A stretch of 64,000 nt of DNA from an uncultured Desulfospira sp. (lineage in GTDB: Bacteria; Desulfobacterota; Desulfobacteria; Desulfobacterales; Desulfobacteraceae), in NCBI GenBank assembly GCA_963663165.1, contig OY760175.1, positions 3,552,001 to 3,616,000 on the forward strand, given 5' to 3'. Position 1 is the stretch's first letter, and each line of letters starts with the position of its first letter. Below, one piece after another: positions 22,945-57,384 of this stretch. Under the pieces are notes generated by a model. The model made no database searches. It was not told where the DNA came from and saw only the letters and a list, made by a program, of their open reading frames with translations. The position numbers were made by a program, and so were the translations under genes.

Positions 22945-22956
22945 AACGTTTTTTCC

Positions 22957-25104: not shown

Positions 25105-25117
25105 TCATTTGCCTCCA

Positions 25118-26422: not shown

Positions 26423-26461
26423 TATTCTATATCCTTTTCCAAAGTTTCAGGTTGATGCTTA

Positions 26462-26620
26462 GGGACTCGGAAAAAATAAATGCCACAGATTTTGCGCTGA
26501 ATTTTTATTCGTACTCAAGGCGCGTTTCAGGGAGCATATTGGAATATGAGCCCTGAACCGCAACGAAGAATACGGATAAAAAGGCACGCAAAATGGGGGA
26601 TTTATTTTTTTTTGCGGCCC
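26462..26620. mobile_element. MITE-like palindromic element, family C
   Basis: Imperfect terminal IRs GGGACTCGGAAAAAATAAAT / ATTTATTTTTTTTTGCGGCCC, nested internal IRs, TTA on both flanks. Confidence 0.65.
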
Positions 26621-27072
26621 TTAAATTCGTCATAGAGGCAGATCACAAACTGGATGCATAAAAACAATGCCCCCGCAGCAACAACCCCTTTAATGGGGTA
26701 AATCGGCAGGGGCAGCGCCCCCCAACGCACCTCCTTCATGTCCCAGGATTCCAGAAACGCGATAAAGGTCTGCCGGGTGATCAGGGCGTATACGGGCAGG
26801 GCAAGGAAATAACCGGTGATCCGCAAAATCCGCTGCCGTTCCTGGCTGAAATTGCGGGTAAACAAATCTATTTTGATATGGCCGCCAACCGCCTGGGTAT
26901 AAGACATCCCGCTGAAAACAAACAGGACCAGCAGATAAGAACTGATTTCCACCACTCCCAGAATCGGACGGTTCAGCACATACCGGCAGAAAACCTCGGC
27001 GCACATCAACACCATGATCACCACCAGAACCAGGCCGGAAAGCATGCCAAGCCAGCTAATTATTTTTCTCAT
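26602..27072 (-). CDS. dctQ: TRAP transporter small permease
   Basis: 156 aa, 4 TM, RYVLNRPI...GGHIKIDLF, located between dctP and dctM. Confidence 0.93.
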   Translation of the reverse strand: MRKIISWLGMLSGLVLVVIMVLMCAEVFCRYVLNRPILGVVEISSYLLVLFVFSGMSYTQAVGGHIKIDLFTRNFSQERQRILRITGYFLALPVYALITRQTFIAFLESWDMKEVRWGALPLPIYPIKGVVAAGALFLCIQFVICLYDEFKGRKKK

Positions 27073-27189
27073 TTTTCACACCCGTTATTATTTTGTATCA
27101 AAGTCTCACTAACAAGCTGAAAAGACTATTTTTTTGTCACGGGCCGATGTTTGGCCGGATAACCGAAGACGGTCCATGACCGTTATTTA

Positions 27190-27269
27190 GTACCCCAACG
27201 GAAACCCCGTGTTTGGACGAAAAATTGTCCAGATGCAAGGCGCAGATGGGTGGCTTTTCGTTCAAACAC
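27190..27269. mobile_element. MITE family B, internally deleted copy
   Basis: Matches both ends of the reverse complement of 46698-46842 with the centre missing. Flanked by TATTTA direct repeats. Confidence 0.75.
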
Positions 27270-27347
27270 TATTTAACCTGTTGGCCGCCCGGGCCGGAAC
27301 GGTAGCTGCACCAATTTTCCAGCCCGGGGGTTGGGAAGGTTAAAGAA

Positions 27348-28442
27348 TCACTGCACAGTGAACGGAGTTTTGTACTTGTCCTGGGGTAAATATTTTTCAA
27401 TCAGTCCCCTGTAAACCTGCAGGGTTTGCCTGCCCGGAAGTTTGCGGTTTTCCATTTTCTGAATCCAGTTGTCATAAATTTTGGGAATCAAAACGGATTT
27501 GCAGTCTTCCACCACCGGGTCGGGGAAGGTGTAAAAAGTGCAATGGGCATCCTTGAGCTTACCGGTGATCTTGGTGAACAGCTGATTGGTTAACTCAACA
27601 TAACGGTCCGGAACAGCAGCATTGGTTTCCTCTATGATCTGCTTGATATTGTCGGGCAGGCCATCCCATACGTCCTGGTTCATGTAGTACCCGCCGCTGG
27701 CATAACATCCCATGCGCAGCCCAACGATATTTTTGGCCACTTCCTGGAACTTAAAGGCGGCAATCAAATGGTAGGGGATCCCGGTTACCGCATCAAGGGT
27801 TCCCCGCTCCAGAGCCTCATAAACCTCGGGCAGGGGCATGGCCACAGGGGTTGCGCCCAGCAGCTTCATGGCATCATTCATCAGCCCCATGGCCCGGACC
27901 TTCTTGCCCTTTAAATCCGCAAGGGATTTAATAGGTTCAATGGATGCCATGGCCACCTCTCCGGCAGACAGGGAAATGAGAAATTTAAGATTATTTTTTT
28001 TCATCATTTTTTGAAACGGCGGATAGGTCTCATGCATTTCAGTGCAGGCTTTGTCCATCAGATAGCCGGAATCAGACTGGTACAGCAAATGAAGGCCCCC
28101 GATCAGGGGAAGCTGGGATGGATAATACCCGTCAGCCACGAACTGGATATCAGCGATACCCGATGAAACCGCTGAAAGGGCATCCATGGTTTTCACCAAC
28201 GCCTGGGCAAAATAATACTCAATCTTGACGCTGCCATTGCTTTTTTTCTCGATCTCATCGCCCCACCACCTGACAATCTGTCCTTCATTGGTGGATTCAG
28301 GAAGGTAGCTTGAAAGCTTAAGTACAATCGGTTTTGTTGATTTTGCAGCCGCGTGATCAACATTCAAGAATCCCATTGCTGCCGTCATCATTGCACAGAT
28401 ACCGGTGATGGCGATAATTTTTCCCATAATACGCTTTTTCAT
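27348..28442 (-). CDS. dctP: TRAP transporter substrate-binding protein
   Basis: Start re-called at MKKRIMG (RBS AAGGAG). Signal peptide. DLKGKKVRA...EVYEALERGTLD. Confidence 0.93.
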   Translation of the reverse strand: MKKRIMGKIIAITGICAMMTAAMGFLNVDHAAAKSTKPIVLKLSSYLPESTNEGQIVRWWGDEIEKKSNGSVKIEYYFAQALVKTMDALSAVSSGIADIQFVADGYYPSQLPLIGGLHLLYQSDSGYLMDKACTEMHETYPPFQKMMKKNNLKFLISLSAGEVAMASIEPIKSLADLKGKKVRAMGLMNDAMKLLGATPVAMPLPEVYEALERGTLDAVTGIPYHLIAAFKFQEVAKNIVGLRMGCYASGGYYMNQDVWDGLPDNIKQIIEETNAAVPDRYVELTNQLFTKITGKLKDAHCTFYTFPDPVVEDCKSVLIPKIYDNWIQKMENRKLPGRQTLQVYRGLIEKYLPQDKYKTPFTVQ

Positions 28443-28498
28443 GATCGCTCCTTTTTGAGTTATAAAAAAACATAGCAACCGGCAAAATGCCGTTACCA

Positions 28499-29161
28499 TC
28501 ATTTATTGGTGCTTGAATCCCGCTTTAAATTTTCAAGGTGTTCGCGAATGGCTGTTTCCGCCTTTGATAAATCCTTTTCCATCAATGCCTCCAGCATATG
28601 TTTATGGCCTTCCACGGCGTCCATGAGGCCGTCTTTTTTCAGCCCTGTTATTCTGGAGCGGATCATATCGTTCCTCAAAGACAGGATAATATTCACCAGC
28701 TGCCGGCTGCCGCTGGCCTTGGCCAGCAGTTCATGAAATTCCCCATCCAGACTTACAAAAGCCGGCAAATCACCATCCGCCAGTTTTCTTTCAGCGGTGA
28801 CAACATTTTCTTTGAGGGCATGGATCTGATCTTGTGTAATCCGCTCAATGGCCCATTTTGCCGCGATGGTTTCCAGAGCGCAGCGGATTTCACAAATTTC
28901 TTCAAGCTCCCGGCGGTCCACAGCCCGGACTTTGTACCCCTTCTTGGGCAGTGCGTACAGCATTCCTTCTTTTTCCAGATAATGCAGCGCTTCCCGAACC
29001 GGTGTGCGGGAAATCCCCAGCTGCTTGGACAGGTTCAGCTCTGTCAGGATTTCAGATGGCGGTATATTGCCTTCTATGATCTGGGTTTTTACATAGTCGT
29101 AAACCCGGTCCCGGAGCGAAACCGGGGGTTTGAGCTTAATGGATGTCGATTTTTTCGGCAT
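28499..29161 (-). CDS. GntR family regulator (FCD domain)
   Basis: LSKQLGISRTPVREALHYLEKEG HTH; DGEFH and EGH motifs. Confidence 0.94.
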   Translation of the reverse strand: MPKKSTSIKLKPPVSLRDRVYDYVKTQIIEGNIPPSEILTELNLSKQLGISRTPVREALHYLEKEGMLYALPKKGYKVRAVDRRELEEICEIRCALETIAAKWAIERITQDQIHALKENVVTAERKLADGDLPAFVSLDGEFHELLAKASGSRQLVNIILSLRNDMIRSRITGLKKDGLMDAVEGHKHMLEALMEKDLSKAETAIREHLENLKRDSSTNK

Positions 29162-29975: not shown

Positions 29976-30914
29976 ATGAAAAAACTAGGTTTATCATTAT
30001 TCCTGGCCCTGGTGATGGCCCTTCCCCTGACCGCAGATGCCTCCGAAAACCCCTACAAAAAACCGGTGAAAGTCATCAGCGGCATGGCACCAGGCAGCGG
30101 ACCGGGCATCAATGATGCCTTTTACGCGGACCTTCTGGCAGAAGAGCTGGGCGTGCCTGTGAAGGTGGTCTATTCCCCGGGCGCCGGAACCATTGTCTCC
30201 CATAACGAGCTTTTGTCAAACCGCGCTGACGGACAGACCATATTGATGAGCTATATTGCCGGTTCTCTCTTAAGTCCGGCCATCAACAAGACCCCCTATA
30301 AAGAAGAAGAGTTTGAAATTATCGGCAACTATGTGGGGAACGTGATCACCGCCGTTGTCCGGGAAGATTCCCCCTATAAAACCCTCCAGGACGCCTTTGA
30401 CCATGCAAAAAAAACAGGGGAGCCGCTTCGTATGAACGTCACCTCCTTTTACGGCATCCCTTTTGTTTCCATGATTGCCGCCACCAACCACTTTGACATC
30501 CCGGCCAAATATACTGAAATCCGAGGGGCCTGTCCCCTGTATCTGGAGCGGGGGGATCTTGACATTCTCCTGGCCTCCCCGTTGGGATGGCTCTCTTATG
30601 CTGAAAAAGGCAGTGTCCGGGCCCTGGCCACCATGACAGCCGGCCCGAGTCTGCCCGGTGTCCCTACCCTTAAAGAGGCCGTAGGCTTTGATGCCTATGG
30701 CGGATTCCAGACCGTCATAGTAAAAAAAGGGATTCCCAGAAACAAATACAACGCCCTGGTGGCTGCCCACGAGCGGGTGATGAAGAGTGAAAAAATGAAA
30801 GAATATTCCGGAAGGACCCACTACATGAACTATTGGGCAACGCCTGAAGACTCTAACAAGCTGCGCCAGGAAGTAAAAAGCTATTTTATATACAATTTTA
30901 AAGATCCCCAATAA
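29976..30914 (+). CDS. tctC: Tripartite tricarboxylate transporter substrate-binding protein
   Basis: Signal peptide. KPVKVISGMAPGSG, PGAGTIV, ADGQTIL, LPGVPTLKEA (Bug/TctC pattern). Confidence 0.85.
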   Translation: MKKLGLSLFLALVMALPLTADASENPYKKPVKVISGMAPGSGPGINDAFYADLLAEELGVPVKVVYSPGAGTIVSHNELLSNRADGQTILMSYIAGSLLSPAINKTPYKEEEFEIIGNYVGNVITAVVREDSPYKTLQDAFDHAKKTGEPLRMNVTSFYGIPFVSMIAATNHFDIPAKYTEIRGACPLYLERGDLDILLASPLGWLSYAEKGSVRALATMTAGPSLPGVPTLKEAVGFDAYGGFQTVIVKKGIPRNKYNALVAAHERVMKSEKMKEYSGRTHYMNYWATPEDSNKLRQEVKSYFIYNFKDPQ

Positions 30915-31016
30915 GGGAGATCTCCCTCCCCCCCCTGCGTCTTGGGTCAAACGGATGGTGTTATCAGCCCCAAGGGGCAGGGGGAATACTATAAAGATTT
31001 TCAGGAAGGCATAATT

Positions 31017-31508
31017 ATGAATAAAAATGAACCCACAAGCGCAAGTGATTATTGCCAGGCAGGGCTTGGATTAACCGGCCTGATCTTGATTGGCCTTTCT
31101 CCCTGGCAGCTGGGCCTCTTTGAAACAGGCGAGGGCTGGTACAGGGGAGATCTTTTAGTGCCTTTTATCAGCCTGGGAATTATGGTTTTAGCCTCCATCC
31201 CAGCCTGGGTGCGGCTGTGGCAAAAGCGGGGCCGAAAGTTTGAGGCAGACAAAGAGGGCCTGATGCTGAGCACCCTCTATATCTTTATCTTTATGCTGAT
31301 ATTTATTGGCGGCCTGATTTTTGTCGGCGTTGTCCCTTCCATTCTTATCCTCATGCCAGTCACCCTCTACCTTTTAGGCCAGAGGAACTGGCTGATCATC
31401 AGCATTTCAACCGCTGTCATCACCACATTGGCATGGCTGTTTTTCATCAAAATCCTGGATCTGTATTTTCCGGATCCCCTGTTATTTGAAATTTTAGGCT
31501 GGGTATAG
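31017..31508 (+). CDS. tctB: Tripartite tricarboxylate transporter small membrane subunit
   Basis: Hydrophobic ~163 aa between tctC and tctA, ending LFFIKILDLYFP. ATG at 31017. Confidence 0.8.
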   Translation: MNKNEPTSASDYCQAGLGLTGLILIGLSPWQLGLFETGEGWYRGDLLVPFISLGIMVLASIPAWVRLWQKRGRKFEADKEGLMLSTLYIFIFMLIFIGGLIFVGVVPSILILMPVTLYLLGQRNWLIISISTAVITTLAWLFFIKILDLYFPDPLLFEILGWV

Positions 31509-31518
31509 GGAGAAGAAT

Positions 31519-33039
31519 ATGAACGTATTTATTGAAGCCCTTCAAGCATCTTTTGCATTGGAAAATGTCCTGTTCATGCTCATCGGCACCCTGTTAGGGG
31601 CCATTGTGGGCATCATACCGGGCCTGGGGGCGCTTGTGGGAATTGTCATTATCCTGCCCATCACCTTTACCCTGGAACCCAATGTGGCCATTTCCATGCT
31701 CCTTGGGGTATATTGTGCCTGTTACTACACCGGCGCCATCCCAGCTGTACTTCTGCGCACCCCCGGCACTCCCCAGTCGCTGATCACCTGCTATGACGGT
31801 TTTCCTTTGACCCAGCAGGGCAAACCGGATCTGGCCATGTCCGCCTGTTTTACCGGCTCCTTTGTGGGCGGTATCATCAGCCTGCTGCTGCTCATCTGCA
31901 TCGCCCCGATTCTGGCAAAAGCAGCCGCCTCCTTCGGGCCTCCGGAGTTCTTTGCTGTGGCGCTTTTCGGCATGTGCTTTGTGGTCATGACCGGCCGGAC
32001 CAACATGGGGCTGAGTGTGGCCCTGGCCGCCCTGGGGATTTTCATCAGCACCATTGGCTATGATGACGCCACCATGTTTCCCAGATACTGCTTCGGCATT
32101 GATGCCATCCAGCGGGGCATCGACCTGGTTCCCCTGGCCATGGGCCTGTTCGGCGTATCCCAGGCCATGAACCTGGCCGGGAAAAAAATCCTGCCCGACG
32201 GCACCTCCCTTTCCAGTGCCAAACGCCTGGATTTCAGCAATATTGTCAAATGCTTCAAATACTGGAAAACCATGGTTTTCAGTGCCTTCTCCGGCACCTT
32301 TGTGGGGCTGATTCCCGGCACTGGCGCTCTGCTGGGATCCCTGCTGGCCTATGAAGGCTCCAAACGGATCACCAGCAAGGAGCCGGAACGGTACGGCACC
32401 GGCACCCCTGAAGGCATTCTTGCCTCCGAAGCCGGCAACAACGCCACCCCGGCAGGCGCCCTGATCCCTTTGCTCACCCTGGGGATTCCAGGCGATGTGG
32501 TCTCCGCCCTTCTTGGGGTGATCTTCATTACCAACGGTATTTTCCCGGGGCCCATGCTGATTTCCAGTGAGCCGGTATTGATCACAGGAATCTATATCTC
32601 CCTGCTCTTTGTCAATGTGGTGGCCTTTGTCATTCTGGCCCTCTGGCTGAGAGCCTGCATCCATGTGGTGCGGGTACCCGGGGATGTCCTGAGCGTGAGT
32701 ATCACCATCCTTGCCTTTTTAGGGGTCTACGCGGTGAATTCCTCGCTCAACGACATCTATATCACCCTTTTCTTTTCAGTACTGGGCTACCTTTTTTTAC
32801 GGCTCAAATGGCAGATTCTGCCACTGATTCTCGGGGTGGTTCTGGGCAATATTATCGAAGTGCGCCTGCGCAACACGTTGGGATTGTCCGACGGGGACAT
32901 CTTTGTGCTGTTCACCCGTCCCCTTTCCTGCTTTTTCATGATCTGCACCATCATGACCATAGTGATCCCCTTTGCCCTGGGCATCCATAAAAAACGCAAA
33001 GCCCGAAAACAGGCCCGACTCAATACCGGCATGATCTGA
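31519..33039 (+). CDS. tctA: Tripartite tricarboxylate transporter large permease
   Basis: GIIPGLG, GAIPAVLLRTPGTP, SEAGNNA...IPLLTLGIPGD. Confidence 0.95.
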   Translation: MNVFIEALQASFALENVLFMLIGTLLGAIVGIIPGLGALVGIVIILPITFTLEPNVAISMLLGVYCACYYTGAIPAVLLRTPGTPQSLITCYDGFPLTQQGKPDLAMSACFTGSFVGGIISLLLLICIAPILAKAAASFGPPEFFAVALFGMCFVVMTGRTNMGLSVALAALGIFISTIGYDDATMFPRYCFGIDAIQRGIDLVPLAMGLFGVSQAMNLAGKKILPDGTSLSSAKRLDFSNIVKCFKYWKTMVFSAFSGTFVGLIPGTGALLGSLLAYEGSKRITSKEPERYGTGTPEGILASEAGNNATPAGALIPLLTLGIPGDVVSALLGVIFITNGIFPGPMLISSEPVLITGIYISLLFVNVVAFVILALWLRACIHVVRVPGDVLSVSITILAFLGVYAVNSSLNDIYITLFFSVLGYLFLRLKWQILPLILGVVLGNIIEVRLRNTLGLSDGDIFVLFTRPLSCFFMICTIMTIVIPFALGIHKKRKARKQARLNTGMI

Positions 33040-33096
33040 TGATTTGCACAAAACAATAAAAACAAAAGCAACACCCTGTTATCCAAGGAGAAAAAA

Positions 33097-34980
33097 TTGA
33101 GCAACAAAGTAACCTATATCCGTGAAGAACACCTGATCCTCCAGCAGGCCCAGGCCGAAGAAAATTTTTTAAAAGAATTTGAAGCCGGGCAGTTTACCTT
33201 GGAAAATCCCCATATTGTATTAAACCCCTACCTGATCAACCCCTTGTGCGCCCTTGTGATGTTTAAAACCCCTGAAGCAACGCGCTCCACCCTCACCATA
33301 AAAGGCAAACGCTTTGCCACAGAAGATATCACCCACACCTTTGGGGCCGGCACCACCCATATTCTGCCGGTGCTGGGATTGTACGAAGATTTTGAAAATA
33401 CCCTTGTCATCACCCTGGAAGACGGCAGCAGTTCCCGGGTAAAGGTCACCACAGGCCCACTGCCGGCCCAGGTGAGCCGCTGCCTGAACATTTTCACCTC
33501 AAAAGATTATCTTAAAGATGATCTCATGTTTTTGAGCACAGCCGGCAAGAACCATCCTGCGGCCTATGATTATAAAGGCGATATTCGCTGGCTTTTGACG
33601 GTCAACACCATGTTTGACCTGAAGCGGGCCAAAAACGGCAACCTGCTCACCGGCTCCTACCGGTTCTGCCGCATGCCCTACAATGCCACCGGCCTTATCG
33701 AACTGGACATGACAGGCAAAATTTACAAGGAGTACCGCCTGCCGGGCAACTACCACCATGACCAGTGGGAAATGGAAGACGGCAACCTGCTGATCCTGAC
33801 CCAGGACTTTCACACCGAAACCGTGGAAGACCAGTGCGTGCTGGTGGATCGCAACACGGGTGATATTTTGAAAACCTGGGACTATAAGGATGTCCTTCCC
33901 CAGAATGTGGCAGGTTCCGGCTCCCAGGATGCCCATGACTGGTTCCACAACAATGCGGTCTGGTACGATAAGAAAACCAACTCCCTCTCCTTTTCCGGCC
34001 GTCACCAGGATGCCATTATCAACCTGGATTATGATTCCGGCCGGCTCAACTGGATCATCGGTGACCCTGAAGGCTGGCCCCAGGAGATGGTGGACAAATA
34101 TTTCTTCACCCCGGTAGGGGATGTGGAAAATTTTGACTGGCAGTATGAGCAGCATGCCTGCCTCATTACCCCCCAGGGGGATGTGATGTGTTTTGACAAC
34201 GGACAGTACCGGGCAAAAGCCAAGGAAAACTATATTAAAAACTGCGATAACTTTTCCCGGGGGGTCCGCTACCGTATTGACACGGACAAAATGGAGATTG
34301 AACAGGTCTGGCAGTATGGAAAGGAAAGGGGCCAGGAATTCTTCTCTCCCTACATCTGTAATGTGGAATACTATGATGACGGCCACTACATGATCCATTC
34401 CGGGGGCATTGGCTTTAAAGACGGCAAGGCTGCGGACAGCCTGGGCGCCTATCTGGATAAAACAGACCCCGGCGTTGAGCTGCGCTCCACAACCGTAGAG
34501 GAAAAAGACGGGGTGGTGATGTATGAACTGCAGACCCAAGGCAACTTCTACCGGGCAGAAAAGCTCCCCCTCTATCATGACGGTGAAAACCACTGTCTGG
34601 GAGCGGGGAAGCTTCTGGGCAAACTGGATGTCACCCCCACCTTTGACACCACTCCCGATGCCCGGGAAACCCAGGGCCAGCCGGATGCCTGGCATGATGT
34701 CCGTATTGAGGAAGATGAAGACCGATTCGTTTTCCACGGCAAATTTGAGCGCGGCACCCTGGCCATGCTCTGCCTGGAAGGCGATGCCGAAGATCGGTCC
34801 TATTTTATCAACACCTCAGCGGTATCCAATCTGGCCATGTGCTCCGGCGCCTTTCTGGAGGACGATGACCGGGATGTTAAAATGAATGTCAGCAAAGAGG
34901 GGCTGAAGGGCAGGTATACGCTCAAGCTCATTATCAATGAGACCAAGTACAACCTGGGCATCTGCGTTTTTGCCGGATAA
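33097..34980 (+). CDS. Aryl-sulfate sulfotransferase (ASST family), paralog 1, no signal peptide
   Basis: TTG start with AAGGAG. NPYLINPLCALV N-domain. YHHD, DWFHNN, SGRHQD, YEQHA and FDNG motifs. Confidence 0.9.
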   Translation: MSNKVTYIREEHLILQQAQAEENFLKEFEAGQFTLENPHIVLNPYLINPLCALVMFKTPEATRSTLTIKGKRFATEDITHTFGAGTTHILPVLGLYEDFENTLVITLEDGSSSRVKVTTGPLPAQVSRCLNIFTSKDYLKDDLMFLSTAGKNHPAAYDYKGDIRWLLTVNTMFDLKRAKNGNLLTGSYRFCRMPYNATGLIELDMTGKIYKEYRLPGNYHHDQWEMEDGNLLILTQDFHTETVEDQCVLVDRNTGDILKTWDYKDVLPQNVAGSGSQDAHDWFHNNAVWYDKKTNSLSFSGRHQDAIINLDYDSGRLNWIIGDPEGWPQEMVDKYFFTPVGDVENFDWQYEQHACLITPQGDVMCFDNGQYRAKAKENYIKNCDNFSRGVRYRIDTDKMEIEQVWQYGKERGQEFFSPYICNVEYYDDGHYMIHSGGIGFKDGKAADSLGAYLDKTDPGVELRSTTVEEKDGVVMYELQTQGNFYRAEKLPLYHDGENHCLGAGKLLGKLDVTPTFDTTPDARETQGQPDAWHDVRIEEDEDRFVFHGKFERGTLAMLCLEGDAEDRSYFINTSAVSNLAMCSGAFLEDDDRDVKMNVSKEGLKGRYTLKLIINETKYNLGICVFAG

Positions 34981-35050
34981 ACAGCAGTGCGGCAGATCGG
35001 TGCTTTCGTCAAATCTGCCATACCCCATACAAACCACCAAAGGAAACCAC

Positions 35051-35968
35051 ATGAAACTATACGACACCATAATCATTGGCGCTGGTCCTGCCGGTATGAC
35101 TGCAGCCATATATGCCAAACGGGCCAACCTTGATCTTCTCCTGTTGGACAAACTGGCCCCGGGCGGCCAGATGCTCAACACCAATGAGATCGAAAATTAT
35201 ACCGGCGCAGGTATCTTGAACGGTGCAGAACTGGCCATCCAAATGTATACCCACACCCAGGAGTTAGGGGTGGAGTTTGACGAAAAAACCGTAGTGGCCA
35301 TTGAAGACAATGGGGCGACCAAAACCCTGGTATGCCTGGAGGACGACACACGGCTTACAGCCAAAAGCGTGATTGTGGCCACCGGTTGCCTTCCCCGTAC
35401 CCTCAATGTGCCCGGGGAAGAAAAGTTTACCGGTAACGGCATTTCCTGGTGCGCCATCTGTGACGGTCCCCAGTACAAAGGCAAGGATGTGGTGGTCATC
35501 GGCGGCGGTAATTCTGCTGTGGAAGAATCCATCTATCTGGCCTCCTTTGCCAACTGCGTTACAATTGTCACCCTGTTTGATCTCACAGCTGACCCTGTGG
35601 CCTGCGACCGCCTCAGAGCCCTTCCCAACGTCACCGTACACCCCTATCAGGATATCCTGGAGTTCACAGGCGATCAAACCCTTGAAGGGGTTAAATTTAA
35701 ATCCACCCAGACAGGGGAAGAGCAATATGTACCCTGTGACGGGGTATTTGAATATATCGGCTTTACCCCAATGACCCAACTGGTCAAGGATCTGGACCTG
35801 TGTGACCGTATGGGCAACATTGAGGTGGACCAAGGAATGCAGACAAAAATCAACGGGATTTTCGGTGCCGGAGATGTGGTAACCAAAGAACTGCGCCAGA
35901 TTGTAACGGCCTGTGCCGATGGTGCCATTGCCGCCCAGAACGCCTTATCTTATGTTAAATCCCTTTAA
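35051..35968 (+). CDS. trxB: Thioredoxin reductase-like flavoprotein
   Basis: IIGAGPAGMTAA, SWCAICDG, GGGNSAVEE, GIFGAGD. Start re-called at ATG 35051. Confidence 0.9.
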   Translation: MKLYDTIIIGAGPAGMTAAIYAKRANLDLLLLDKLAPGGQMLNTNEIENYTGAGILNGAELAIQMYTHTQELGVEFDEKTVVAIEDNGATKTLVCLEDDTRLTAKSVIVATGCLPRTLNVPGEEKFTGNGISWCAICDGPQYKGKDVVVIGGGNSAVEESIYLASFANCVTIVTLFDLTADPVACDRLRALPNVTVHPYQDILEFTGDQTLEGVKFKSTQTGEEQYVPCDGVFEYIGFTPMTQLVKDLDLCDRMGNIEVDQGMQTKINGIFGAGDVVTKELRQIVTACADGAIAAQNALSYVKSL

Positions 35969-36051
35969 CAAACGAATTGAAGAAAGTATCCCGGGCCGGC
36001 CCGGTTGCCGGGACTGCCCGCCCTTTTTTCACAGACACAGGAGACCCTGTC

Positions 36052-36360
36052 ATGATTATTGAAATTACAAGCGAAGAACAATTTAAAGATCTGGTTGGAA
36101 GCGGAAAAGTGCTGCTGGAATTCTATTCCAAAACCTGCGGCCCCTGTAAAATGCTCTCCTTTGTTCTCAAGGACGTGGACAAAACCGTGGAAGACTGCAA
36201 CATTCTCACCATTGATTTTGATGAATTCGAAGACCTCAAGCAAGCCTATAACGTGGCTGGATTCCCTACCATGATCATGCTGAATGATGGTAAGGAAACC
36301 GACCGTCTCCAGGGCCTGAAACAAAAACGGGCCATCATTGAAACCATTCAAGCAGCTTAA
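36052..36360 (+). CDS. Thioredoxin
   Basis: FYSKTCGPCKML, cis-Pro motif GFPT, 102 aa, RBS AGGAG. Confidence 0.92.
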   Translation: MIIEITSEEQFKDLVGSGKVLLEFYSKTCGPCKMLSFVLKDVDKTVEDCNILTIDFDEFEDLKQAYNVAGFPTMIMLNDGKETDRLQGLKQKRAIIETIQAA

Positions 36361-36381
36361 TTTACTATCAGGAGTCCGATA

Positions 36382-38271
36382 ATGAATTACAATCTACCCA
36401 AAGTTCAGTATAAACGCATTGATCATCTGGTCACCCAGCAAAACGAAAATGAAGCAAAATTCATGGCCCGGTTCAAATCCCGGAACAATGGATTTGATGA
36501 TCCCATGATTGTTGAAAACCCCTATCTGATCAATCCCCTGGCCGCCCTGGTTCTGTTCAACACCACAAAAGCCCTTTCGGCAAAAGTCACGGTCAAAGGC
36601 AAAGACAGCACAGCAGATCTCACCCATACCTTTCCTGCAGCAGACAGCCACATTCTTCCCATACTGGGGCTGTACCCCTCACAACCCAACACAGTTGTTA
36701 TTGAACTGGCAGACGGCCAAACCCAGACGCTGACCATCCAGGGCGGAGATCTGCCGGAACTCACCCAGAAGGTGGAAAAAATATTTACCACCCCCGAGTA
36801 CATGGCAGGCTCTTTCATGTTTGTCTCGGCCGCCGGCAAATCCCTGCCCGGCGGCTACGACCACAAGGGCCACTGCCGCTGGACCCTGGCGGAAAACTTT
36901 GTATTTGACATGAAGCGGGCCAGAAACGGGAACCTGCTTTGCGGTTCCTACCGCTACTCCCGGGTGCCCTACCATGCCACGGGCATCTGTGAAATCACCA
37001 TGGCCGGTAAAATCATCAAGGAGTACCGTTTACCCGGCAACTACCACCATGACCAGTTTGAAATGGAAGACGGCAGCCTGCTGGTGCTTACCCAGGATTT
37101 TCACCGGGACACCGTGGAAGATATGCTGGTGAGAATTGACCGGGATTCAGGTGAAATTCTGGACACCTGGGATATCCGGCAACTTTTGCCCATGGATGCG
37201 GCCAAGTCCGGATCCTGGAGTGAACATGACTGGTTCCACTGCAATGCGGTCTGGTACGATAAAAAGACCCATTCCCTCTCCCTTTCCGGCCGCCATCAGG
37301 ATATCATCCTCAACATTGATTACGACACCTCACAGATCAACTGGATGCTGGGGGACCCGGAAGGATGGCCGGAAGAGCTGGTGAGAAAATACTTTTTCAC
37401 CCCGGTGGGCCAGGACGGATTTGACTGGCAGTATGAACAGCATGCCTGCATGATTCTGCCGGACGGGGATGTGATGTGCTTTGACAACGGGCACTGGCGC
37501 GCCAAATCCAAGGAGAATTACCTGAAAAACAAGGATAACTTCTCCAGGGGTGTAAGATACCGCATTGACACCAATGAGATGACCATTGAACAGGTCTGGC
37601 AGTTCGGCAAGGAAAGAGGGCGCCACTTTTACTCCCCCTATATCTGTAATGTGGAGTATTATGATGAAGGCCACTATATGGTTCACTCCGGCGGTATCGG
37701 GTATGTGAACGGTGAAACCACAGAGCATCTGCTGCCCGCATTCCTGGACCCCACCGATCCCACCCATGAGCAGAAGAGCGTCACTGTGGAGATCAAGGAC
37801 GATGTGGTCATGTACGAAATGCATCTGCCCAGCCAGTTCTATAGAGCTGAAAAACTGCCCCTCTACCATGACCAGGACAACCTGTGCATCGGCCAGGGCC
37901 AGGTGGTGGGCTCTCTGGATGTTACCCCGGAATTTGATACCGTACCCGATGCCGATGAAACCAATGAAGCACCGGACGCCTGGAACCAGATCCGCATTGT
38001 TGAAGAAGAGGACCGGTTCACCTTTCACGGCCGGTTTGAAAAGGGCACGCTTTTAATGCTCTGCCTGGAAAATGAAAAGGAAACCCACAACTACTATATT
38101 TCCACCACGGCACGGCCGGCCCTGGCCATGTGTGTGGGATCGTTCATGGAAGCTGATGACCGCGTCATCTCCATGAATGTCAGCAAACTGGGTTTTACCG
38201 GCACCTTTGCAGTAAAATATATCCTCAACGATAAAAAATTCAACACCGGTATCAGCATTACCCTAGAATAA
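36382..38271 (+). CDS. Aryl-sulfate sulfotransferase (ASST family), paralog 2, no signal peptide
   Basis: Full-length homolog of 33097-34980 with YHHD, DWFHCN, SGRHQD, YEQHA motifs. Confidence 0.9.
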   Translation: MNYNLPKVQYKRIDHLVTQQNENEAKFMARFKSRNNGFDDPMIVENPYLINPLAALVLFNTTKALSAKVTVKGKDSTADLTHTFPAADSHILPILGLYPSQPNTVVIELADGQTQTLTIQGGDLPELTQKVEKIFTTPEYMAGSFMFVSAAGKSLPGGYDHKGHCRWTLAENFVFDMKRARNGNLLCGSYRYSRVPYHATGICEITMAGKIIKEYRLPGNYHHDQFEMEDGSLLVLTQDFHRDTVEDMLVRIDRDSGEILDTWDIRQLLPMDAAKSGSWSEHDWFHCNAVWYDKKTHSLSLSGRHQDIILNIDYDTSQINWMLGDPEGWPEELVRKYFFTPVGQDGFDWQYEQHACMILPDGDVMCFDNGHWRAKSKENYLKNKDNFSRGVRYRIDTNEMTIEQVWQFGKERGRHFYSPYICNVEYYDEGHYMVHSGGIGYVNGETTEHLLPAFLDPTDPTHEQKSVTVEIKDDVVMYEMHLPSQFYRAEKLPLYHDQDNLCIGQGQVVGSLDVTPEFDTVPDADETNEAPDAWNQIRIVEEEDRFTFHGRFEKGTLLMLCLENEKETHNYYISTTARPALAMCVGSFMEADDRVISMNVSKLGFTGTFAVKYILNDKKFNTGISITLE

Positions 38272-38343
38272 TCTTTGACGGAAGATGAATTTGAAGATCA
38301 CTATGATTGCCTGTCCCGGCAGATACCGGGGCAGGCAATATGT

Positions 38344-39015
38344 TTAATACCGGAGAGACAATTCCCGCTGTACCACCATTTCCAGGCTGGCTTTATCCAG
38401 AAGCTCAATATTGCGCCTGCTCCTGTCAATAAACCCTTCCTGGCGCAATGCCTTGATCACCTTGGCCACGGTAATCTTGTGCAGGGAAAGAAAGTTGGCC
38501 ATTTCATTCTGGGTGAAGCACTGGGGCAGGATCCATCTGCCTTCACGATACTCACTGAACTCCACCAGCATGGCACAGATCCTGACCGGCGCATTTTCAC
38601 AGGTGAAAAGAGATGCATGTTCCAGCATATTGGACATATTCTGGGCAAGGGCACCCGTGATATCCGCATAGGTTTCAGGGTGCTCTTCAAGCAGTTGCCG
38701 TAAGGCCCTTCTGTCAAGTATATACAAGGTGGCATCGGTCATGGTCCGGATCCGGATCCGGGATTTGTAGATATGGGATTCAGGAAATTCAGACTCCGGC
38801 AGAAGATGCCGAATAAACCCCATGATATTTCCTTTTTTAAAATATAAAAAAGCCCGCTCATCCCCATCAGGGGTTACGGTTCCAAGGCTGCAGATCCCGG
38901 ACTCTAGCACAACCGCAGAGTAGCGGGTGATATCCAGTTCATGCCCTGCAGGAAATTCTTTTTTTTTACCAGCCTTCCTGAACAGCTCCAGATAGTTGCC
39001 TTTTCTCCAGAACAC
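38344..39015 (-). CDS. Crp/Fnr family transcriptional regulator
   Basis: cNMP-like beta domain plus HTH FTQNEMANFLSLHKITVAKVIKALRQEG. Confidence 0.9.
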   Translation of the reverse strand: MFWRKGNYLELFRKAGKKKEFPAGHELDITRYSAVVLESGICSLGTVTPDGDERAFLYFKKGNIMGFIRHLLPESEFPESHIYKSRIRIRTMTDATLYILDRRALRQLLEEHPETYADITGALAQNMSNMLEHASLFTCENAPVRICAMLVEFSEYREGRWILPQCFTQNEMANFLSLHKITVAKVIKALRQEGFIDRSRRNIELLDKASLEMVVQRELSLRY

Positions 39016-39132: not shown

Positions 39133-39170
39133 CCTGAATGAGCGAAGATGAGGCACTGCTGAATAGTTAC
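39133..39170 (+). mobile_element. Element family D, isolated right end
   Basis: CCTGAATGAGCGAAGATGAGGCACTGCTGAATAGTTAC matches 48370-48408. Confidence 0.75.
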
Positions 39171-39532
39171 TACTTTTTTATTGTTTCATAACAATAAGCC
39201 GCACGGCCACCTACTGCCTGGTAGTCTTCCGGAGAAAAAACACATATACCGCCTACAGGTTGCGATAGTGATCTTACTTTCAACTCATCATAGGGCATAA
39301 CTTCCATATATTTCTCATTCCAGTCAAAGGGCAGCCCCGGATTCGTAACAACATTATACGTGCTTTGGGGAGACCCGAACGTATATACGCCAATCCAGTC
39401 AACAGGGAACAAGGTGTTGACCAAAGACTCAAGCAGCTGAGGGAACTCTTTGTAGTTATTTGTATAAATCAGGGATTGCTGAATCTCTCTTAGTACTTCA
39501 ACAGCTTTCAGTTTAAGGCGATTAGATATCAA
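39170..39532 (-). pseudogene. Truncated gene, possibly the sensory domain of a regulator
   Basis: 120-aa AT-rich ORF divergent from the ABC operon. Its TAG is formed at the junction with the family D end. Regulator identity is inference only. Confidence 0.45.
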
Positions 39533-39722: not shown

Positions 39723-39845
39723 TATATTACATTGTATTATTATTTTCTTGACAATGCGGTCTCTGTCATTCTATTAATGGGTTGCTTTAAAGCGATTTTT
39801 AAAAAATCCCCTAATTTTGAACCCGAAACTGCAAAAGGTGAGAAC

Positions 39846-41432
39846 ATGAATTTTTTTAGACATCTGATATGGCTTGTCTGTTTCCTGACAGCTCTGGCGG
39901 CGGTGCCTGCCTTTGGGGCAGACAATTCCAAAATCATCATTGGCACAAGGTCAGAACCCTCCATTGACCCCCATTTCCTTTATACAGAACCCAACATCGG
40001 CTATGCCAAGCATATTTACGGCCGTCTGGTGGGCAGGGATAATGATTCCCGCAGGGAAGCCGATCTTGCTGTCTCCTGGCGGGCCATTGATGACCTCACC
40101 TGGGAGTTTAAATTAAGAAAAGGCGTCAAGTTCCAGGACGGTTCGGACTTTACAGCCGATGATGTCCTTTTTTCCATCAAGCGTATTCCCAATGTACGCA
40201 ATAATCCGGGACCCTATGCCGGGAACTTAAGGTCCGTTGTTGATGTGCAAAAGGACGGGCCCTATAAAGTTATTATCAAAACCGACAAGCCCAACCCCGT
40301 ATTGCCCACCCAGATGCACAACGTCTCCATTGTCTCCTCAAGTGTGGGTGAAGAAGTTAGAACAGAAGATTTCTCATCCGGGAAAGCGGCCATTGGTACT
40401 GGCCCGTATAAATTTGTGGAATATGTGCCCGGCGATCATCTGACCCTGGAACGGTTTGACGGCTATTGGGGACCCAAACCAAAATTCAAACGGGTGGTGT
40501 TTAAAATTATCAGCAATGATGCTGCCCGGGTGGCAGCCTTGCTGGCCGGAGATGTGGATCTCATCGATTTTGTTCCTCCCACTGAGGTGGCCCACCTGAC
40601 CAAAAATGAAAAGATCAAAATTTTCAAACGTCCGGCAGACCGGGTGATCTTTTTCCACATGGACAGCGTTCGCGATGTCTCTCCTTATGTCACCGATAAA
40701 GATGGAAAACCTCTGGCAGAGAACCCCTTGAAAGACGTGCGGGTGAGAAAGGCCCTCTCTTATGCCATCAACCGAAAAGCCATCTGCAGCCGGGTAATGG
40801 AAGGGTTGTCTGCTCCCGAAAGCCAGCTGGTGCCCACGGGATGGTTTGGCCACAGCCCAAATATTCAGGTGGATCCCTATGACCCTGAAAAGGCTGAAAA
40901 ACTTCTGACACAGGCGGGGTATCCTGACGGCTTTGGAATAACCATCCATGGACCCAACGACAGGTATGTCAACGACTATAAGGTTTGCCAGGCCGTAGCC
41001 CAGATGTTTGCCCGGATCGGTTTGAAGGTCAAAGTGGAAACCATGCCCAAAAGTGTCTACTTTGGCAGCTATGTGCCGCCTGACTCAAAATTCAGTTTTG
41101 CCATGCTGGGCTGGGGAACGTCGGCCACCTGCGAGTCCATTCACGGCCTGACAGGTTTTGTGCATACCTATAATAAGGAAAAGGGTATGGGGGCTTATAA
41201 CCTGGGCTATTCAAACCCTGACGTTGACAGGATAATTGAAGATGCGGTCACTATCGTGGATAGTGCGAAGCGTGAAAAGATGCTGAATAAGGCCATGGAA
41301 ACGGCCATGGCGGATATGGCGGCCATTCCCATGCACACCCAGTATACGGTTTCGGCAGGGCTGAAATCCGTTGATTATACGGTGCGCCCGGATGAGATGA
41401 CCTTGGCCTATAATGCGCGTCCGGCAAAATAA
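39846..41432 (+). CDS. ABC transporter substrate-binding protein, family 5 (Dpp/Opp/Nik)
   Basis: Signal peptide from ATG 39846. TWEFKLRKGVKFQDGSDFTADDV, IGTGPYKF. Confidence 0.95.
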   Translation: MNFFRHLIWLVCFLTALAAVPAFGADNSKIIIGTRSEPSIDPHFLYTEPNIGYAKHIYGRLVGRDNDSRREADLAVSWRAIDDLTWEFKLRKGVKFQDGSDFTADDVLFSIKRIPNVRNNPGPYAGNLRSVVDVQKDGPYKVIIKTDKPNPVLPTQMHNVSIVSSSVGEEVRTEDFSSGKAAIGTGPYKFVEYVPGDHLTLERFDGYWGPKPKFKRVVFKIISNDAARVAALLAGDVDLIDFVPPTEVAHLTKNEKIKIFKRPADRVIFFHMDSVRDVSPYVTDKDGKPLAENPLKDVRVRKALSYAINRKAICSRVMEGLSAPESQLVPTGWFGHSPNIQVDPYDPEKAEKLLTQAGYPDGFGITIHGPNDRYVNDYKVCQAVAQMFARIGLKVKVETMPKSVYFGSYVPPDSKFSFAMLGWGTSATCESIHGLTGFVHTYNKEKGMGAYNLGYSNPDVDRIIEDAVTIVDSAKREKMLNKAMETAMADMAAIPMHTQYTVSAGLKSVDYTVRPDEMTLAYNARPAK

Positions 41433-41443
41433 TTTGTACTAAT

Positions 41444-42421
41444 ATGACCCTGTTCATTGTAAGACGGCTGATTCAGATGGTGATCACCCTGGCGGTGATG
41501 TCACTCATAGTCTTTGTGGGTATCTATGCCGTGGGAGATCCGGTCAGATTGCTCATCAGCCCCGAAGCCAGCCAGCAGGAACGAATCGACGCCACCCGGT
41601 CCCTGGGCCTGGATAAACCTTTGACCGCTCAGTACCTGCACTTTCTCAAAGGGGCGGTCAAAGGGGACTTAGGCAATTCGTACATCCATAATATACCGGC
41701 GCTTAAGCTGATCATGACCCGGCTGCCGGCTACCATGGAGCTTGCGGTATGTGCCATTGTTCTCTCCATCGCTTTTGGTATTCCGTTGGGACTTCTGGCG
41801 GGCATATATCCTGATTCAACCCTGTCCCGTTCTATCATGGTGGGGTCCATTTTCGGATTTAGTCTGCCAACGTTCTGGGTGGGGCTGATGATGGTGCTGA
41901 TCTTTTCTGTTCATCTTGGATGGCTGCCAACCTCCGGCCGTGGCCAGACCGTGGAGGTCATGGGAGTCGCATTCAGCTTCTTCACTCTGGACGGTCTCAA
42001 ACATCTGATGCTGCCGGCCATCAATCTGTCACTGTTTCCCATGGCCCTGGTCACCCGGCTGACCAAAGCGGGTGTAAGCGAAATTTTACAACAGGACTAT
42101 ATTACCATGGCCAGGGCCAAGGGACTGACCGAACTTCGTATTATGGGTGTGCATGTCCTTAAAAACACGCTCATTCCCATCATCACGGTGGTCGGTCTGC
42201 AGTTCGGCGTACTCCTGGCATTTGCCGTTGTCACGGAAAGCGTATTTGCCTGGCCGGGCATGGGAAAGCTGATCATTGACTCAATCAATATGCTGGACCG
42301 TCCTGTGGTGATCTCCTATCTTCTGATCACGGTGGTGCTGTTCATGGGTATTAACTTTTTTGTAGATGTTATTTATTCTGTGCTCGATCCGCGGGTCCGG
42401 CTGGGGGACCGTGAGGCATGA
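41444..42421 (+). CDS. Peptide ABC transporter permease (DppB-like)
   Basis: QDYITMARAKGL, ESVFAWPGMG. Confidence 0.95.
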   Translation: MTLFIVRRLIQMVITLAVMSLIVFVGIYAVGDPVRLLISPEASQQERIDATRSLGLDKPLTAQYLHFLKGAVKGDLGNSYIHNIPALKLIMTRLPATMELAVCAIVLSIAFGIPLGLLAGIYPDSTLSRSIMVGSIFGFSLPTFWVGLMMVLIFSVHLGWLPTSGRGQTVEVMGVAFSFFTLDGLKHLMLPAINLSLFPMALVTRLTKAGVSEILQQDYITMARAKGLTELRIMGVHVLKNTLIPIITVVGLQFGVLLAFAVVTESVFAWPGMGKLIIDSINMLDRPVVISYLLITVVLFMGINFFVDVIYSVLDPRVRLGDREA

Positions 42422-43329
42422 CTCACCTGTTTTCAAAGAAAAAAACAGCATATGCCGATAAAAGCCCCTGGCTTCTTATCTGGGATGATTTTTCCGACAG
42501 CCGGGTAGCGGTGATTTCCCTGGCTGTTTTAGGCATTATTCTGTTACTGGCCCTGGCAGCGCCCTGGCTCTCCATGCAGAATCCTTACGATCTTGCTCAG
42601 ATCAGCATCATGGACTCACGACTTGCACCGGGTGAAACCAGTATGGAGGGGACCACCTTCTGGCTGGGCACCGATGACCAGGGCCGGGATATGGTAAGCG
42701 CCATTTTTTACGGGCTTCGCATCAGCCTCTGGGTGGGTATTGCCTCGGGTGTAATCGCCTTTTTTACCGGGACCTTTATCGGGCTTTTGGGTACCTATGC
42801 CGGCGGGTGGATTGATGCGCTGATTATGCGTGCCGTGGATATCCAGCTGGGATTCCCTCCCATTTTGATATCGCTGATTCTTCTGGCGCTTCTGGGCCGG
42901 GGTACGGACAAGGTTCTGCTGGCCCTGGTGTTGAGCCAGTGGACCTTTTATGCCCGTACCGTGCGAGCCACAGCTCTTGTGGAGCGCCAGAAAGAATACA
43001 TGGAAGCGGCCCGTGGAATGAAGATGCCGGCGGCTGTAATCTTGATGCGCCATCTGATGCCCAACTGTCTGCCTCCGTTGATCGTGGTCTCCACGGTGAA
43101 TGTCGCCAATGCCATCCAGCTGGAGGCCACGCTCTCTTTTCTCGGGGTGGGGCTTCCTGTGACCCAGCCCTCCCTGGGACTGCTCATAGCCAATGGCTTT
43201 CAGTATATCTTAAGCGGCCAGTACTGGATCAGTGTTTATCCGGGTATAGCGCTGCTCATTACTGTGGCCAGTATCAACCTTGTGGCAGACCGTTTGCGTG
43301 ACATACTGGATCCGAGGAATAAAAGATGA
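42418..43329 (+). CDS. Peptide ABC transporter permease (DppC-like)
   Basis: WLGTDDQGRD, EYMEAARGM, EATLSFLGVG. Confidence 0.95.
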   Translation: MTHLFSKKKTAYADKSPWLLIWDDFSDSRVAVISLAVLGIILLLALAAPWLSMQNPYDLAQISIMDSRLAPGETSMEGTTFWLGTDDQGRDMVSAIFYGLRISLWVGIASGVIAFFTGTFIGLLGTYAGGWIDALIMRAVDIQLGFPPILISLILLALLGRGTDKVLLALVLSQWTFYARTVRATALVERQKEYMEAARGMKMPAAVILMRHLMPNCLPPLIVVSTVNVANAIQLEATLSFLGVGLPVTQPSLGLLIANGFQYILSGQYWISVYPGIALLITVASINLVADRLRDILDPRNKR

Positions 43330-45316: not shown

Positions 45317-45381
45317 ATCAAACGGCAGCAACTGGAACAGACCTTAATTTCAAATATCATTTATCTTGTGGATACATTGAC

Positions 45382-54733: not shown

Positions 54734-54771
54734 CTTTCGGGCCTCCTTGTGGCAGGTTGTCGCGTTTCATG

Positions 54772-54782
54772 TGGTAATACCA
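54772..54782. promoter_or_regulatory. FadR-subfamily operator
   Basis: TGGTAATACCA fits the TGGT-N3-ACCA core of LldR/PdhR-type sites. Confidence 0.55.
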
Positions 54783-57374: not shown

Positions 57375-57384
57375 GCCAACCGCT

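Follow-up and report, generated by a model that had tools for sequence, protein, structure and literature searches.

The subject of this work is an operon of seven co-directional genes, tctCBA-ASST1-trxB-trx-ASST2, in a 64,000-nucleotide stretch of contig OY760175.1 from an uncultured Desulfospira sp. (the whole of this stretch is called the window below). It encodes an importer of the tripartite tricarboxylate transporter (TTT) type, two arylsulfate sulfotransferases (ASSTs) and a thioredoxin (Trx) with a thioredoxin reductase (TrxB, of the TrxR family), and a Crp/Fnr gene on the minus strand converges on it; the gene order and the convergent regulator gene, both given in an initial annotation of the window, were recovered in the open reading frame (ORF) listing and in the Pfam and NCBIfam scans. 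We propose that the whole module may serve the cytoplasmic utilisation of aryl sulfates, the sulfuryl group being passed from His353 to Cys582 of the ASST and freed as sulfite by Trx, which by analogy with known thioredoxin-dependent chemistry is a serious possibility short of a probability.

ASSTs without signal peptides and their thioredoxin neighbours

The catalytic and N-terminal Ig-like domains gave 355.9 and 62.2 bits for ASST1 and 348.2 and 60.6 bits for ASST2 (both cut-offs 24.2), and the two proteins are 60% identical. Neither has a signal peptide, as the initial annotation had stated: upstream of the start the reading frame stays open for only 18 codons in ASST1 and seven in ASST2 before a stop is met, which leaves no room for one, and the two N-termini are hydrophilic. 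The pair therefore does not belong to the enterobacterial periplasmic ASST/Dsb type, its neighbours being a cytoplasmic-type Trx and TrxB. The His/His-x-Asn/Arg/His motif set was likewise found in both proteins, and H220, H221, H284, N286, R302, H303 and H353 (ASST1 numbering) are invariant in a set of 132 distinct ASST sequences with 47-78% identity to ASST1 (the clade, below). H353 aligns with His436 of Escherichia coli ASST, the residue that 3elq keeps and that is changed to Asn in the H436N mutant 4p04. The AlphaFold2 (AF2) model of ASST1 (pLDDT 82.1, pTM 0.82) has the six-bladed beta-propeller fold, its top Foldseek matches being E. coli ASST chains (E 4e-26, TM 0.55-0.61) and then Cpz4; beta strands run across residues 505-626, so that ASST1 has the C-terminal beta-sandwich with mobile loop of the three-domain cytoplasmic 'clade 6', the type of Dh_ASST_6 from Desulfitobacterium hafniense. 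According to the available text of the preprint, Dh_ASST_6's crystal structure shows a 626-residue monomer with an N-terminal domain, a six-bladed propeller and a C-terminal beta-sandwich, the sulfo carrier is His350, and PAPS-independent sulfotransfer from aryl sulfate to phenol has been shown for a D. hafniense member of the clade (bioRxiv 10.64898/2026.10.08.757636). A 626-residue homologue (L206, from the family of the carrier genome G002) has all nine residues named for Dh_ASST_6 at the published numbers and aligns over its full length, so the window ASSTs share the Dh_ASST_6 architecture. At its own locus (L206:3-4800) this homologue stands between an MFS transporter and, by eye, an Arylsulfotran_2-type gene, and no trx gene was found in its 1.5-kb flanks. 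The best ASST homologues carry Desulfobacterota names. In one metagenome-assembled genome (MAG) both kinds coexist: a distant ASST (26% identity, L068:6925-8256) that bears a typical signal peptide lies a few kb away from a trx-linked ASST of the cytoplasmic kind.

The forward test of linkage covered 80 genome loci, at species level, whose ASST is a close relative of ASST1 or ASST2. At 62 of these trxB and/or trx lay at most 5 kb from the ASST, 14 had a short flank on at least one side, and four (L021, L052, L073 and L074) had neither gene in flanks of at least 2.5 kb on both sides. By the names that the sequence records carry, the loci come from Desulfovibrionaceae, Desulfobulbaceae, Desulfobacteraceae, relatives of Desulfopila and Desulfofustis, and Clostridia; Maridesulfovibrio, Desulfovibrio (including D. 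piger), Mailhella, Desulfobulbus, Desulfoprunum, Desulfofustis, Desulfopila, Desulfosediminicola, Desulfotignum, Desulfobacula and two Cellulosilyticaceae MAGs are among them. For the reciprocal test 80 TrxBs from metagenomes, relatives of the linked TrxB, were taken, and 37 of them (51-69% identity) carry the signature T-x-[FL]-[DNA]-LT[AS]DP. An ASST was found in the fetched stretch beside 30 of the 37; in the other seven the contig runs on for no more than 602 nt after trxB. Of the 43 TrxBs lacking the signature (46-53% identity) none had an ASST beside it, 26 of them with at least 2.5 kb on both sides. The linkage of trxB and trx to ASST holds whichever gene one starts from, so the thioredoxin genes are no chance neighbours, and these comparisons argue that they are not passengers of the ASST locus. 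The initial annotation had named the lack of conserved trx genes beside signal-less ASSTs as grounds for giving up its reading, and at the 62 loci they are there. It is highly improbable, in our judgement, that the neighbourhood has no functional meaning, the thioredoxin genes being general stress genes carried along: all that speaks for this is that gene order alone never proves function, and against it stand the two-way linkage across several orders into Clostridia, the distinct TrxB subtype and the 0 of 43 for other TrxBs.

The family of G002 adds a further pairing. Of its 61 sampled genomes 26 carry the ASST clade, often in two to four copies, some of them beside the same linked TrxB/Trx type as in the window. 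Other copies have a different pair after them; at one such locus (L201:1477-4858) a Dh_ASST_6-like ASST is followed by a 109-residue Trx-like protein (CHVC) and a TrxB-like protein (CATC, VLHDQGILD), the gene for the latter being only about 38% identical to the window TrxB, and a LysR regulator lies upstream of the ASST on the other strand. Because a different pair stands beside the same ASST clade, this looks like a second, independent recruitment of a thioredoxin pair.

The operon TrxB has the FAD/NAD(P) domains with a CxxC motif (PF07992, 166 bits) of a low-molecular-weight thioredoxin reductase and scores 324.7 bits against TIGR01292, below the cut-off of 343.45. Where the housekeeping TrxB of the genome reads HRRDELRA the linked TrxB reads TLFD-LTAD, and hence it has no HRRxxxR motif; the replacement is conserved among linked TrxBs. 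We take HRRxxxR to be the specificity site for NADPH (its 2'-phosphate), and the linked enzyme, to judge from this motif, probably uses NADH. The operon Trx has the thioredoxin fold and a CGPC dithiol (PF00085, 75.4 bits, cut-off 23.5) and is outside the equivalog TIGR01068 (73.7 bits, cut-off 96.8) and its WCGPC motif, its active site being K-T-C-G-P-C with Thr in place of the canonical Trp. K-[TS]-CGPC was found in 54 of 62 linked Trx sequences and Thr for Trp in 52 of the 62 (window included). A separate canonical trx-trxB pair (WCGPC, HRRDELR) is present elsewhere in the genome (C1:3106203-3107440), and by these motifs the operon pair appears as a second, specialised system beside the housekeeping one. 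The best solved relatives of the linked TrxB are bacterial TrxRs (e.g. 5uwy, 2.5e-73). A ferredoxin-dependent (FFTR) or DTR-type reductase was considered and rejected, TrxB being far nearer to these TrxRs than to 6gna (1.8e-33) or 5j60 (8.4e-43), which we take to be an FFTR and a DTR respectively. At two annotated loci of the nearest metagenomic TrxB relatives without an ASST (L140 and L123) the context is uvrA-hprK-lgt-trxB-whiA, typical of housekeeping trxB in Firmicutes, and no glycine-reductase context was found around them.

The importer was assigned to the TTT family because matches to PF03401, PF07331 and PF01970, all above cut-off, fall in one operon. TctC begins with a signal-like hydrophobic stretch (MKKLGLSLFLALVMALPLTADA) and weakly matches BugD and other TctC structures. 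The operon TctA and TctC are each the sole tblastn match in the 6.74 Mb genome (E <= 1e-5), and the transporter may for this reason have been acquired together with the ASST module. When the ORFs of the 80 loci and of the window (81 sources) were clustered and the cluster representatives scanned against Pfam, the importer was CitMHS-like at 25 loci, Na_sulph_symp/CitMHS-like at 13 and MFS at seven, with TTT in the window and at L007. Such swapping of importer families while the enzyme core stays constant agrees with an anionic substrate that is imported and acted on in the cytoplasm. The cluster containing Crp/Fnr ORFs had members in 31 of the 81 sources. Other genes at the 80 loci were an alkylsulfatase-like metallo-beta-lactamase (MBL; Alkyl_sulf_dimr) at eight (e.g. 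L007:11930-13216), a Phenol_MetA_deg outer-membrane channel, also at eight (e.g. L005:10914-11831), a short-chain dehydrogenase/reductase (SDR) at five, and, in the scan of representative neighbour ORFs, a nitroreductase/ferredoxin gene at one (L022); the first two hint at a second sulfate-ester enzyme and at uptake of aromatic compounds. The presence of the MBL, SDR and nitroreductase/ferredoxin genes could be taken to mean that the Trx system serves some other step of the pathway (an aglycone, a quinone, a disulfide substrate or another enzyme) while the ASST only removes or moves sulfate. However, no extra enzyme is constant and the sole invariable partners of the linked TrxB and Trx are the ASST genes, and we consider this explanation very improbable.

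Candidate cysteines and the proposed fate of the sulfuryl group

The initial annotation had drawn attention to the Cys at the second position after the last His, in YEQHAC, as a candidate for a role in reductive release. It is present in both window ASSTs (C355 in ASST1, C356 in ASST2), but the role assigned to it has to be given up: in the 132 clade members this His+2 position is Cys in 103, Ala in 19, Asn in five, Ser in three and Val in two, so that 29 of 132 lack the Cys, and the replacements extend to trx-linked ASSTs (Ala in 6 of 65 tabulated; Ala, Asn and Val in metagenomic ones). The Dh_ASST_6-like subclade reads HAAR here. The alignment thus marks the His+2 Cys as dispensable. All 132 members have Cys582 (Cys584 in ASST2), which lies in the motif A-[ML]-C-x-G; no other Cys is invariant in the clade, and the C-terminal domain has only five invariant residues in all, Cys582 included. 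Residues 576-587 of ASST1 form one of three AF2 segments with pLDDT below 50, and by matching of numbers Cys583 of L206 falls in the middle of segment 576-590 of Dh_ASST_6, for which the crystal shows no ordered structure. The clade, then, has one conserved Cys in a flexible C-terminal stretch, as for a mechanism like that of PAPS/APS reductase, and on alignment and model Cys582, in the mobile loop by the entrance of the pocket, appears the better candidate. A conserved regulatory disulfide from Cys582 to Cys355, Cys365 or Cys421 was also considered and finds no support, since no constant partner exists: each of the three positions varies among the 132 members (Cys421 is present in 113), and the homologue L205 lacks all three.

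A lone invariant mobile Cys over an activated sulfuryl group, together with a private Trx system, is what led us to propose a path resembling that of PAPS/APS reductase. An anionic sulfate ester would enter through the TTT system, and ASST1 or ASST2 would load its sulfuryl group on His353, as the invariant residues suggest and as has been shown for His436 of E. coli and His350 of D. hafniense. The group would then pass to Cys582, not to a phenol, giving an enzyme S-sulfocysteine; the operon Trx would attack this thiosulfonate, by analogy with PAPS/APS reductase, and sulfite would leave. TrxB, lacking the NADPH motif and probably using NADH, would re-reduce Trx, and the sulfite would go to DsrAB, sparing the ATP cost of sulfate activation. 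As a form of respiration, that is, an ATP-free route from imported phenolic esters by way of His353 and Cys582 to sulfite driven by a private NADH-type Trx system, the proposal is a tentative one about which we have some doubt. Much of the earlier reading survives in it (cytoplasmic ASSTs, an importer beside them, a real Trx linkage and a sulfate-reducing host), and the His+2 Cys does not.

The host was described in the initial annotation as a sulfate reducer only by way of a condition. DsrA and AprA both score above the curated cut-offs in the 6.74 Mb genome, a single contig, so it is a dissimilatory sulfate reducer. Six further carriers, either without a Desulfobacterota name or from a sample of the class Clostridia, were checked for sulfite reductases. 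DsrA was over the cut-off in three (G002, G003 and G005) and AsrC in two (G001 and G004); neither DsrA nor AprA was found in the two AsrC carriers, and free sulfate would be useless there as an electron acceptor. In the Clostridia sample, which held two genomes besides the 399 that were scored, the full-length clade occurs in only two of the 399 (G001 and G389), too few for statistics.

Could Trx, or another thiol, be the direct acceptor of the sulfuryl group, with Trx-S-SO3 going on to oxidised Trx and sulfite and Cys582 only gating or positioning the partner? The two-way linkage fits this equally, the altered lead-in to the active site of the linked Trx ([TS]CGPC in the 54 of 62 given above) would suit it, and ASSTs are promiscuous in their acceptors, according to the available part of a 2026 review (PMC13426309). 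The predicted ASST1-Trx complex, a weak pass, can be counted in favour of this reading and of our own route through Cys582 alike: the prediction gave 'weak support' with a score of 0.60, the best of three controls scoring 0.00, and its runs had at least 97% contact agreement and a partner pLDDT of at least 88. Of 157 solved complexes 116 came up to the mark, as did two of 215 mismatched pairs, and scores of 0.60 or less went to only 18 of the 157 and to both passing mismatches, benchmark counts that apply only roughly to ASST1-Trx, for which custom alignments were used. On the other hand direct transfer leaves the single loop Cys, invariant throughout the clade, unexplained, and the pocket of the D. 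hafniense enzyme is narrow in the structure described in the available preprint text (about 4.2 x 4.8 x 3.0 A, bottleneck radius 0.94 A; bioRxiv 10.64898/2026.10.08.757636), so that a protein thiol would hardly reach His353. We regard direct transfer to Trx as improbable.

A role in redox maintenance or repair, the main rival and already the fallback of the initial annotation, deserves more attention, though we think it rather unlikely. Here the ASSTs would be ordinary sulfotransferases or net sulfatases, and Trx/TrxR would only keep the exposed loop Cys582 reduced and might also clear an accidental self-sulfonation, a mixed disulfide or a sulfenate that would jam the lid, as a cytoplasmic mirror of DsbL/DsbI. 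Periplasmic ASSTs, too, have private oxidoreductases, DsbL/DsbI or astA-dsbA, in the part of the review available (PMC13426309); members of the clade sulfate phenols in vitro without Trx, in the available text of the preprint (bioRxiv 10.64898/2026.10.08.757636); Cys582 is kept in ASSTs that have no trx neighbour; and in most members further Cys lie near the active site (positions 355 and 421, in 103 and 113 of the 132). Against maintenance as the sole role, the genome already holds a canonical Trx system, the specialised reductase with its altered nucleotide site, fixed arrangement and twofold recruitment is more like a stoichiometric electron donor, and the want of a conserved partner Cys, seen at its clearest in L205, argues against a conserved regulatory disulfide.

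Several points weigh against the reductive route through Cys582 that we propose. All 16 of the trx-unlinked ASSTs that cover the site have Cys at position 582, so that its conservation does not track linkage within the locus; in many genomes of unlinked ASSTs the trx pair may lie beside a second ASST gene (L069 and L073, for instance, come from one MAG). The complex prediction passed only weakly, and the body of solved structures is rich in complexes of thioredoxin with a target. No sulfite-handling neighbour was constant in the scan of 80 representative neighbour ORFs; a TauE/SafE-family gene (L042) and a TusA-DsrE gene (L071) were each one representative of an ORF cluster. One carrier with a trx-linked ASST, G389, had neither DsrA nor AsrC in a genome of 1.7 Mb whose completeness is not established, and is a possible counter-example; phylogeny and habitat also confound the link to sulfite reducers. 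Finally, the D. hafniense sulfotransferases transfer sulfate to phenols efficiently in vitro without Trx, as far as the available parts of both sources go (bioRxiv 10.64898/2026.10.08.757636; PMC13426309), and hence Trx is not needed for the known reaction.

Operon layout and other genes of the window

The positions of the genes and sites are collected in Table 1. The starts of TrxB (ORF 34937-35968) and Trx (ORF 35977-36360) were set by alignment to homologues. Gaps between the operon genes are 10-83 nt, and AGGAG-like Shine-Dalgarno sites precede six of the seven starts; none was found ahead of the TctB ORF start at 30942, and TctB probably starts downstream of the TTG that opens this ORF. 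The hairpin between the ASST2 and Crp/Fnr stops is likely to be a bidirectional terminator closing the operon. A search for Fnr/Crp boxes ahead of the operon (TTGAT-N4-ATCAA, at most two mismatches) gave 51 matches against 36 +/- 6 expected, which is near chance, and the one two-mismatch site at 29521 has to be read at that frequency. A CprK-like identity of the regulator was rejected, the protein matching assorted solved Crp/Fnr structures only weakly.

Table 1. Genes, sites and the hairpin of the ASST operon region, in window coordinates
Feature	Position	Strand	Evidence or remark
TctC, TTT periplasmic solute-binding protein	29976..30914	+	PF03401 5.9e-17
TctB, small membrane subunit	30942..31508	+	PF07331 2.4e-08
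TctA, large membrane subunit	31519..33039	+	PF01970 9.3e-121
ASST1, three-domain, 627 aa, TTG start	33097..34980	+	PF05935 3.4e-106, PF17425
ASST1 catalytic His353 codon	34153-34155		
ASST1 Cys355 codon	34159-34161		
ASST1 loop with Cys582	34822-34866		
ASST1 Cys582 codon	34840-34842		
TrxB, low-molecular-weight thioredoxin reductase, 305 aa	35051..35968	+	PF07992 1.7e-48
TrxB redox motif CAIC	35450-35461		
TrxB TLFD-LTAD	within 35561-35602		
Trx, thioredoxin, 102 aa	36052..36360	+	PF00085 3.9e-21
Trx active site K-T-C-G-P-C	within 36121-36156		
ASST2, ASST1 paralogue, 629 aa	36382..38271	+	PF05935 7.1e-104
ASST2 His354	within 37429-37455		
ASST2 loop Cys584 codon	38131-38133		
Hairpin, 14-bp stem, between ASST2 and Crp/Fnr stops	38306..38339		sole strong hairpin
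Crp/Fnr-family regulator, cNMP-binding-like domain and helix-turn-helix	38344..39015	-	PF13545 1.7e-12, PF00027 9.6e-05

Directly upstream of the ASST operon and divergent from it lies a transporter-linked molybdoenzyme operon (21221-29161, minus strand). Its GntR/FCD regulator and the TRAP transporter DctP, DctQ and DctM come first, and after them a molybdopterin oxidoreductase with a 4Fe-4S subunit and an FAD/NAD reductase; the oxidoreductase (715 aa) is Fdh-alpha/PhsA-like and below all equivalog cut-offs. On the other side a 120-aa ORF (39170-39532, minus strand) with no Pfam or NCBIfam match separates the Crp/Fnr gene from an Opp/Dpp-type peptide ABC transporter operon that includes an Xaa-Pro dipeptidase (39732-46650). 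The region 54029-62249, with an LldR-type regulator, a homologue of the LarA-family nickel-pincer racemase, a TRAP transporter and a 976-aa YdiJ/GlpC-like dehydrogenase, is probably a locus for 2-hydroxy-acid utilisation. A 3730-aa RHS/YD-repeat protein with RHS core and Rhs-associated core domains is encoded at 4066-15258 (minus strand), and downstream of its gene (752-4002, minus strand) are an 875-aa ORF without a family and a 208-aa ORF with a weakly PEP-CTERM-like C-terminus.

Significance and comparison with known systems

Decades of work on ASSTs have dealt with them as enzymes associated with virulence and as biocatalysts. Their physiological role and natural substrates are described as poorly understood in the available part of the 2026 review (PMC13426309). 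A conserved module of importer, cytoplasmic ASST and specialised Trx system, with one invariant Cys in the lid, makes such a role experimentally definable, and if our proposal is correct the ASSTs would gain a physiological role long missing. Sulfate esters, such as phenolic conjugates in the gut and sulfated aromatics in marine sediments, would then be direct electron acceptors for sulfidogenic bacteria, with an ATP-free entry to dissimilatory sulfite reduction as a shortcut in the energetics of the sulfur cycle, and the route would also be open to organisms with Asr or Dsr that lack the enzymes of sulfate activation. Sulfide production in the gut would be tied to host phase-II conjugates, Desulfovibrio piger and Mailhella loci being among those that carry the module. 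The disordered loop would hold a functional residue, which would be of use to enzyme engineers. No report of an ASST-Trx/TrxR linkage or of the invariant loop Cys was found in the full-text literature searched, a scope that leaves subscription journals outside. Papers pairing arylsulfate sulfotransferase with thioredoxin deal mostly with periplasmic Dsb or thioredoxin-fold oxidoreductases, as their titles and opening abstract lines indicate, and among those listed none ties an ASST to a cytoplasmic thioredoxin system at that level; the match for ASST with thioredoxin reductase concerned envelope biogenesis, and that for arylsulfate sulfotransferase with sulfate-reducing was a bioinformatic Sutterella paper.

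The nearest characterised protein is Dh_ASST_6 (also ASTB; EC 2.8.2.22). In so far as it is described in the available text of the preprint, it shares with ASST1 an N-terminal beta-sandwich, six-bladed propeller and C-terminal beta-sandwich, a length of about 626 aa and the lack of a signal peptide. Its His220, His283, Asn285, Arg301, His350, Tyr416 and Ile417 correspond to His221, His284, Asn286, Arg302, His353, Tyr419 and Ile420 of ASST1, and both proteins have a loop at about 576-590, disordered in the crystal or of low confidence in the model, that bears the conserved Cys. The Dh_ASST_6-like subclade differs from ASST1 in having Ala at His+2 and is only 47-49% identical to it. In the same text Dh_ASST_6 figures only as an in vitro biocatalyst, with no physiological role or redox partner reported; thioredoxin is mentioned neither there nor in the available part of the review (PMC13426309), and cysteine is not mentioned in the preprint text, a scope that excludes the supplements with their 100-sequence alignment (bioRxiv 10.64898/2026.10.08.757636).

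Comparison with E. coli CFT073 periplasmic ASST (PDB 3ELQ, 3ETS, 3ETT, 4P04-07) shows the same propeller fold, with about 20% identity over the Foldseek alignment, and a ping-pong sulfohistidine mechanism, presumed for ASST1, on the aligned His, and beside each enzyme lies a private pair of thiol-disulfide oxidoreductases. The E. coli enzyme is a dimer with a disulfide Cys418-Cys424, and DsbL and DsbI act as oxidants. Its disulfide loop falls in an alignment gap with ASST1, and with shorter chains (571 aa) it would appear to lack the C-terminal Cys-loop domain. Unlike ASST1 it is exported, has one essential disulfide and is served by DsbL/DsbI, according to the available part of the review (PMC13426309), whereas the partners of ASST1 and ASST2 are of the thioredoxin and thioredoxin-reductase families.

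The chemistry proposed for the module, capture by a single Cys and release of sulfite by Trx, is like that of PAPS/APS reductase (CysH). In that enzyme a conserved Cys on a flexible C-terminal segment forms S-sulfocysteine, and thioredoxin frees the sulfite. CysH differs in its sulfonucleotide donor and has no relation in sequence or fold, whereas the donor of the module would be an aryl sulfate by way of a sulfohistidine; no PAPS_reduct domain (PF01507) was found in any operon protein in the Pfam scan. CysH also serves assimilation, whereas the ASST module would feed respiration. A different route has been proposed from single-cell genomics for marine Desulfatiglans, in which hydrolytic sulfatases would win sulfate from esters, according to the available part of that paper (PMC6129605). 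In its proposed outcome the module invites comparison with organosulfonate respiration, in which organic sulfur delivers sulfite to Dsr and ATP-dependent sulfate activation is bypassed. Bilophila and Desulfovibrio convert taurine and isethionate to sulfite in this way, the C-S bond being cleaved by glycyl-radical or ThDP enzymes. There the substrates are C-S sulfonates, whereas in the module an O-sulfate ester would be handled by an ASST together with thioredoxin.

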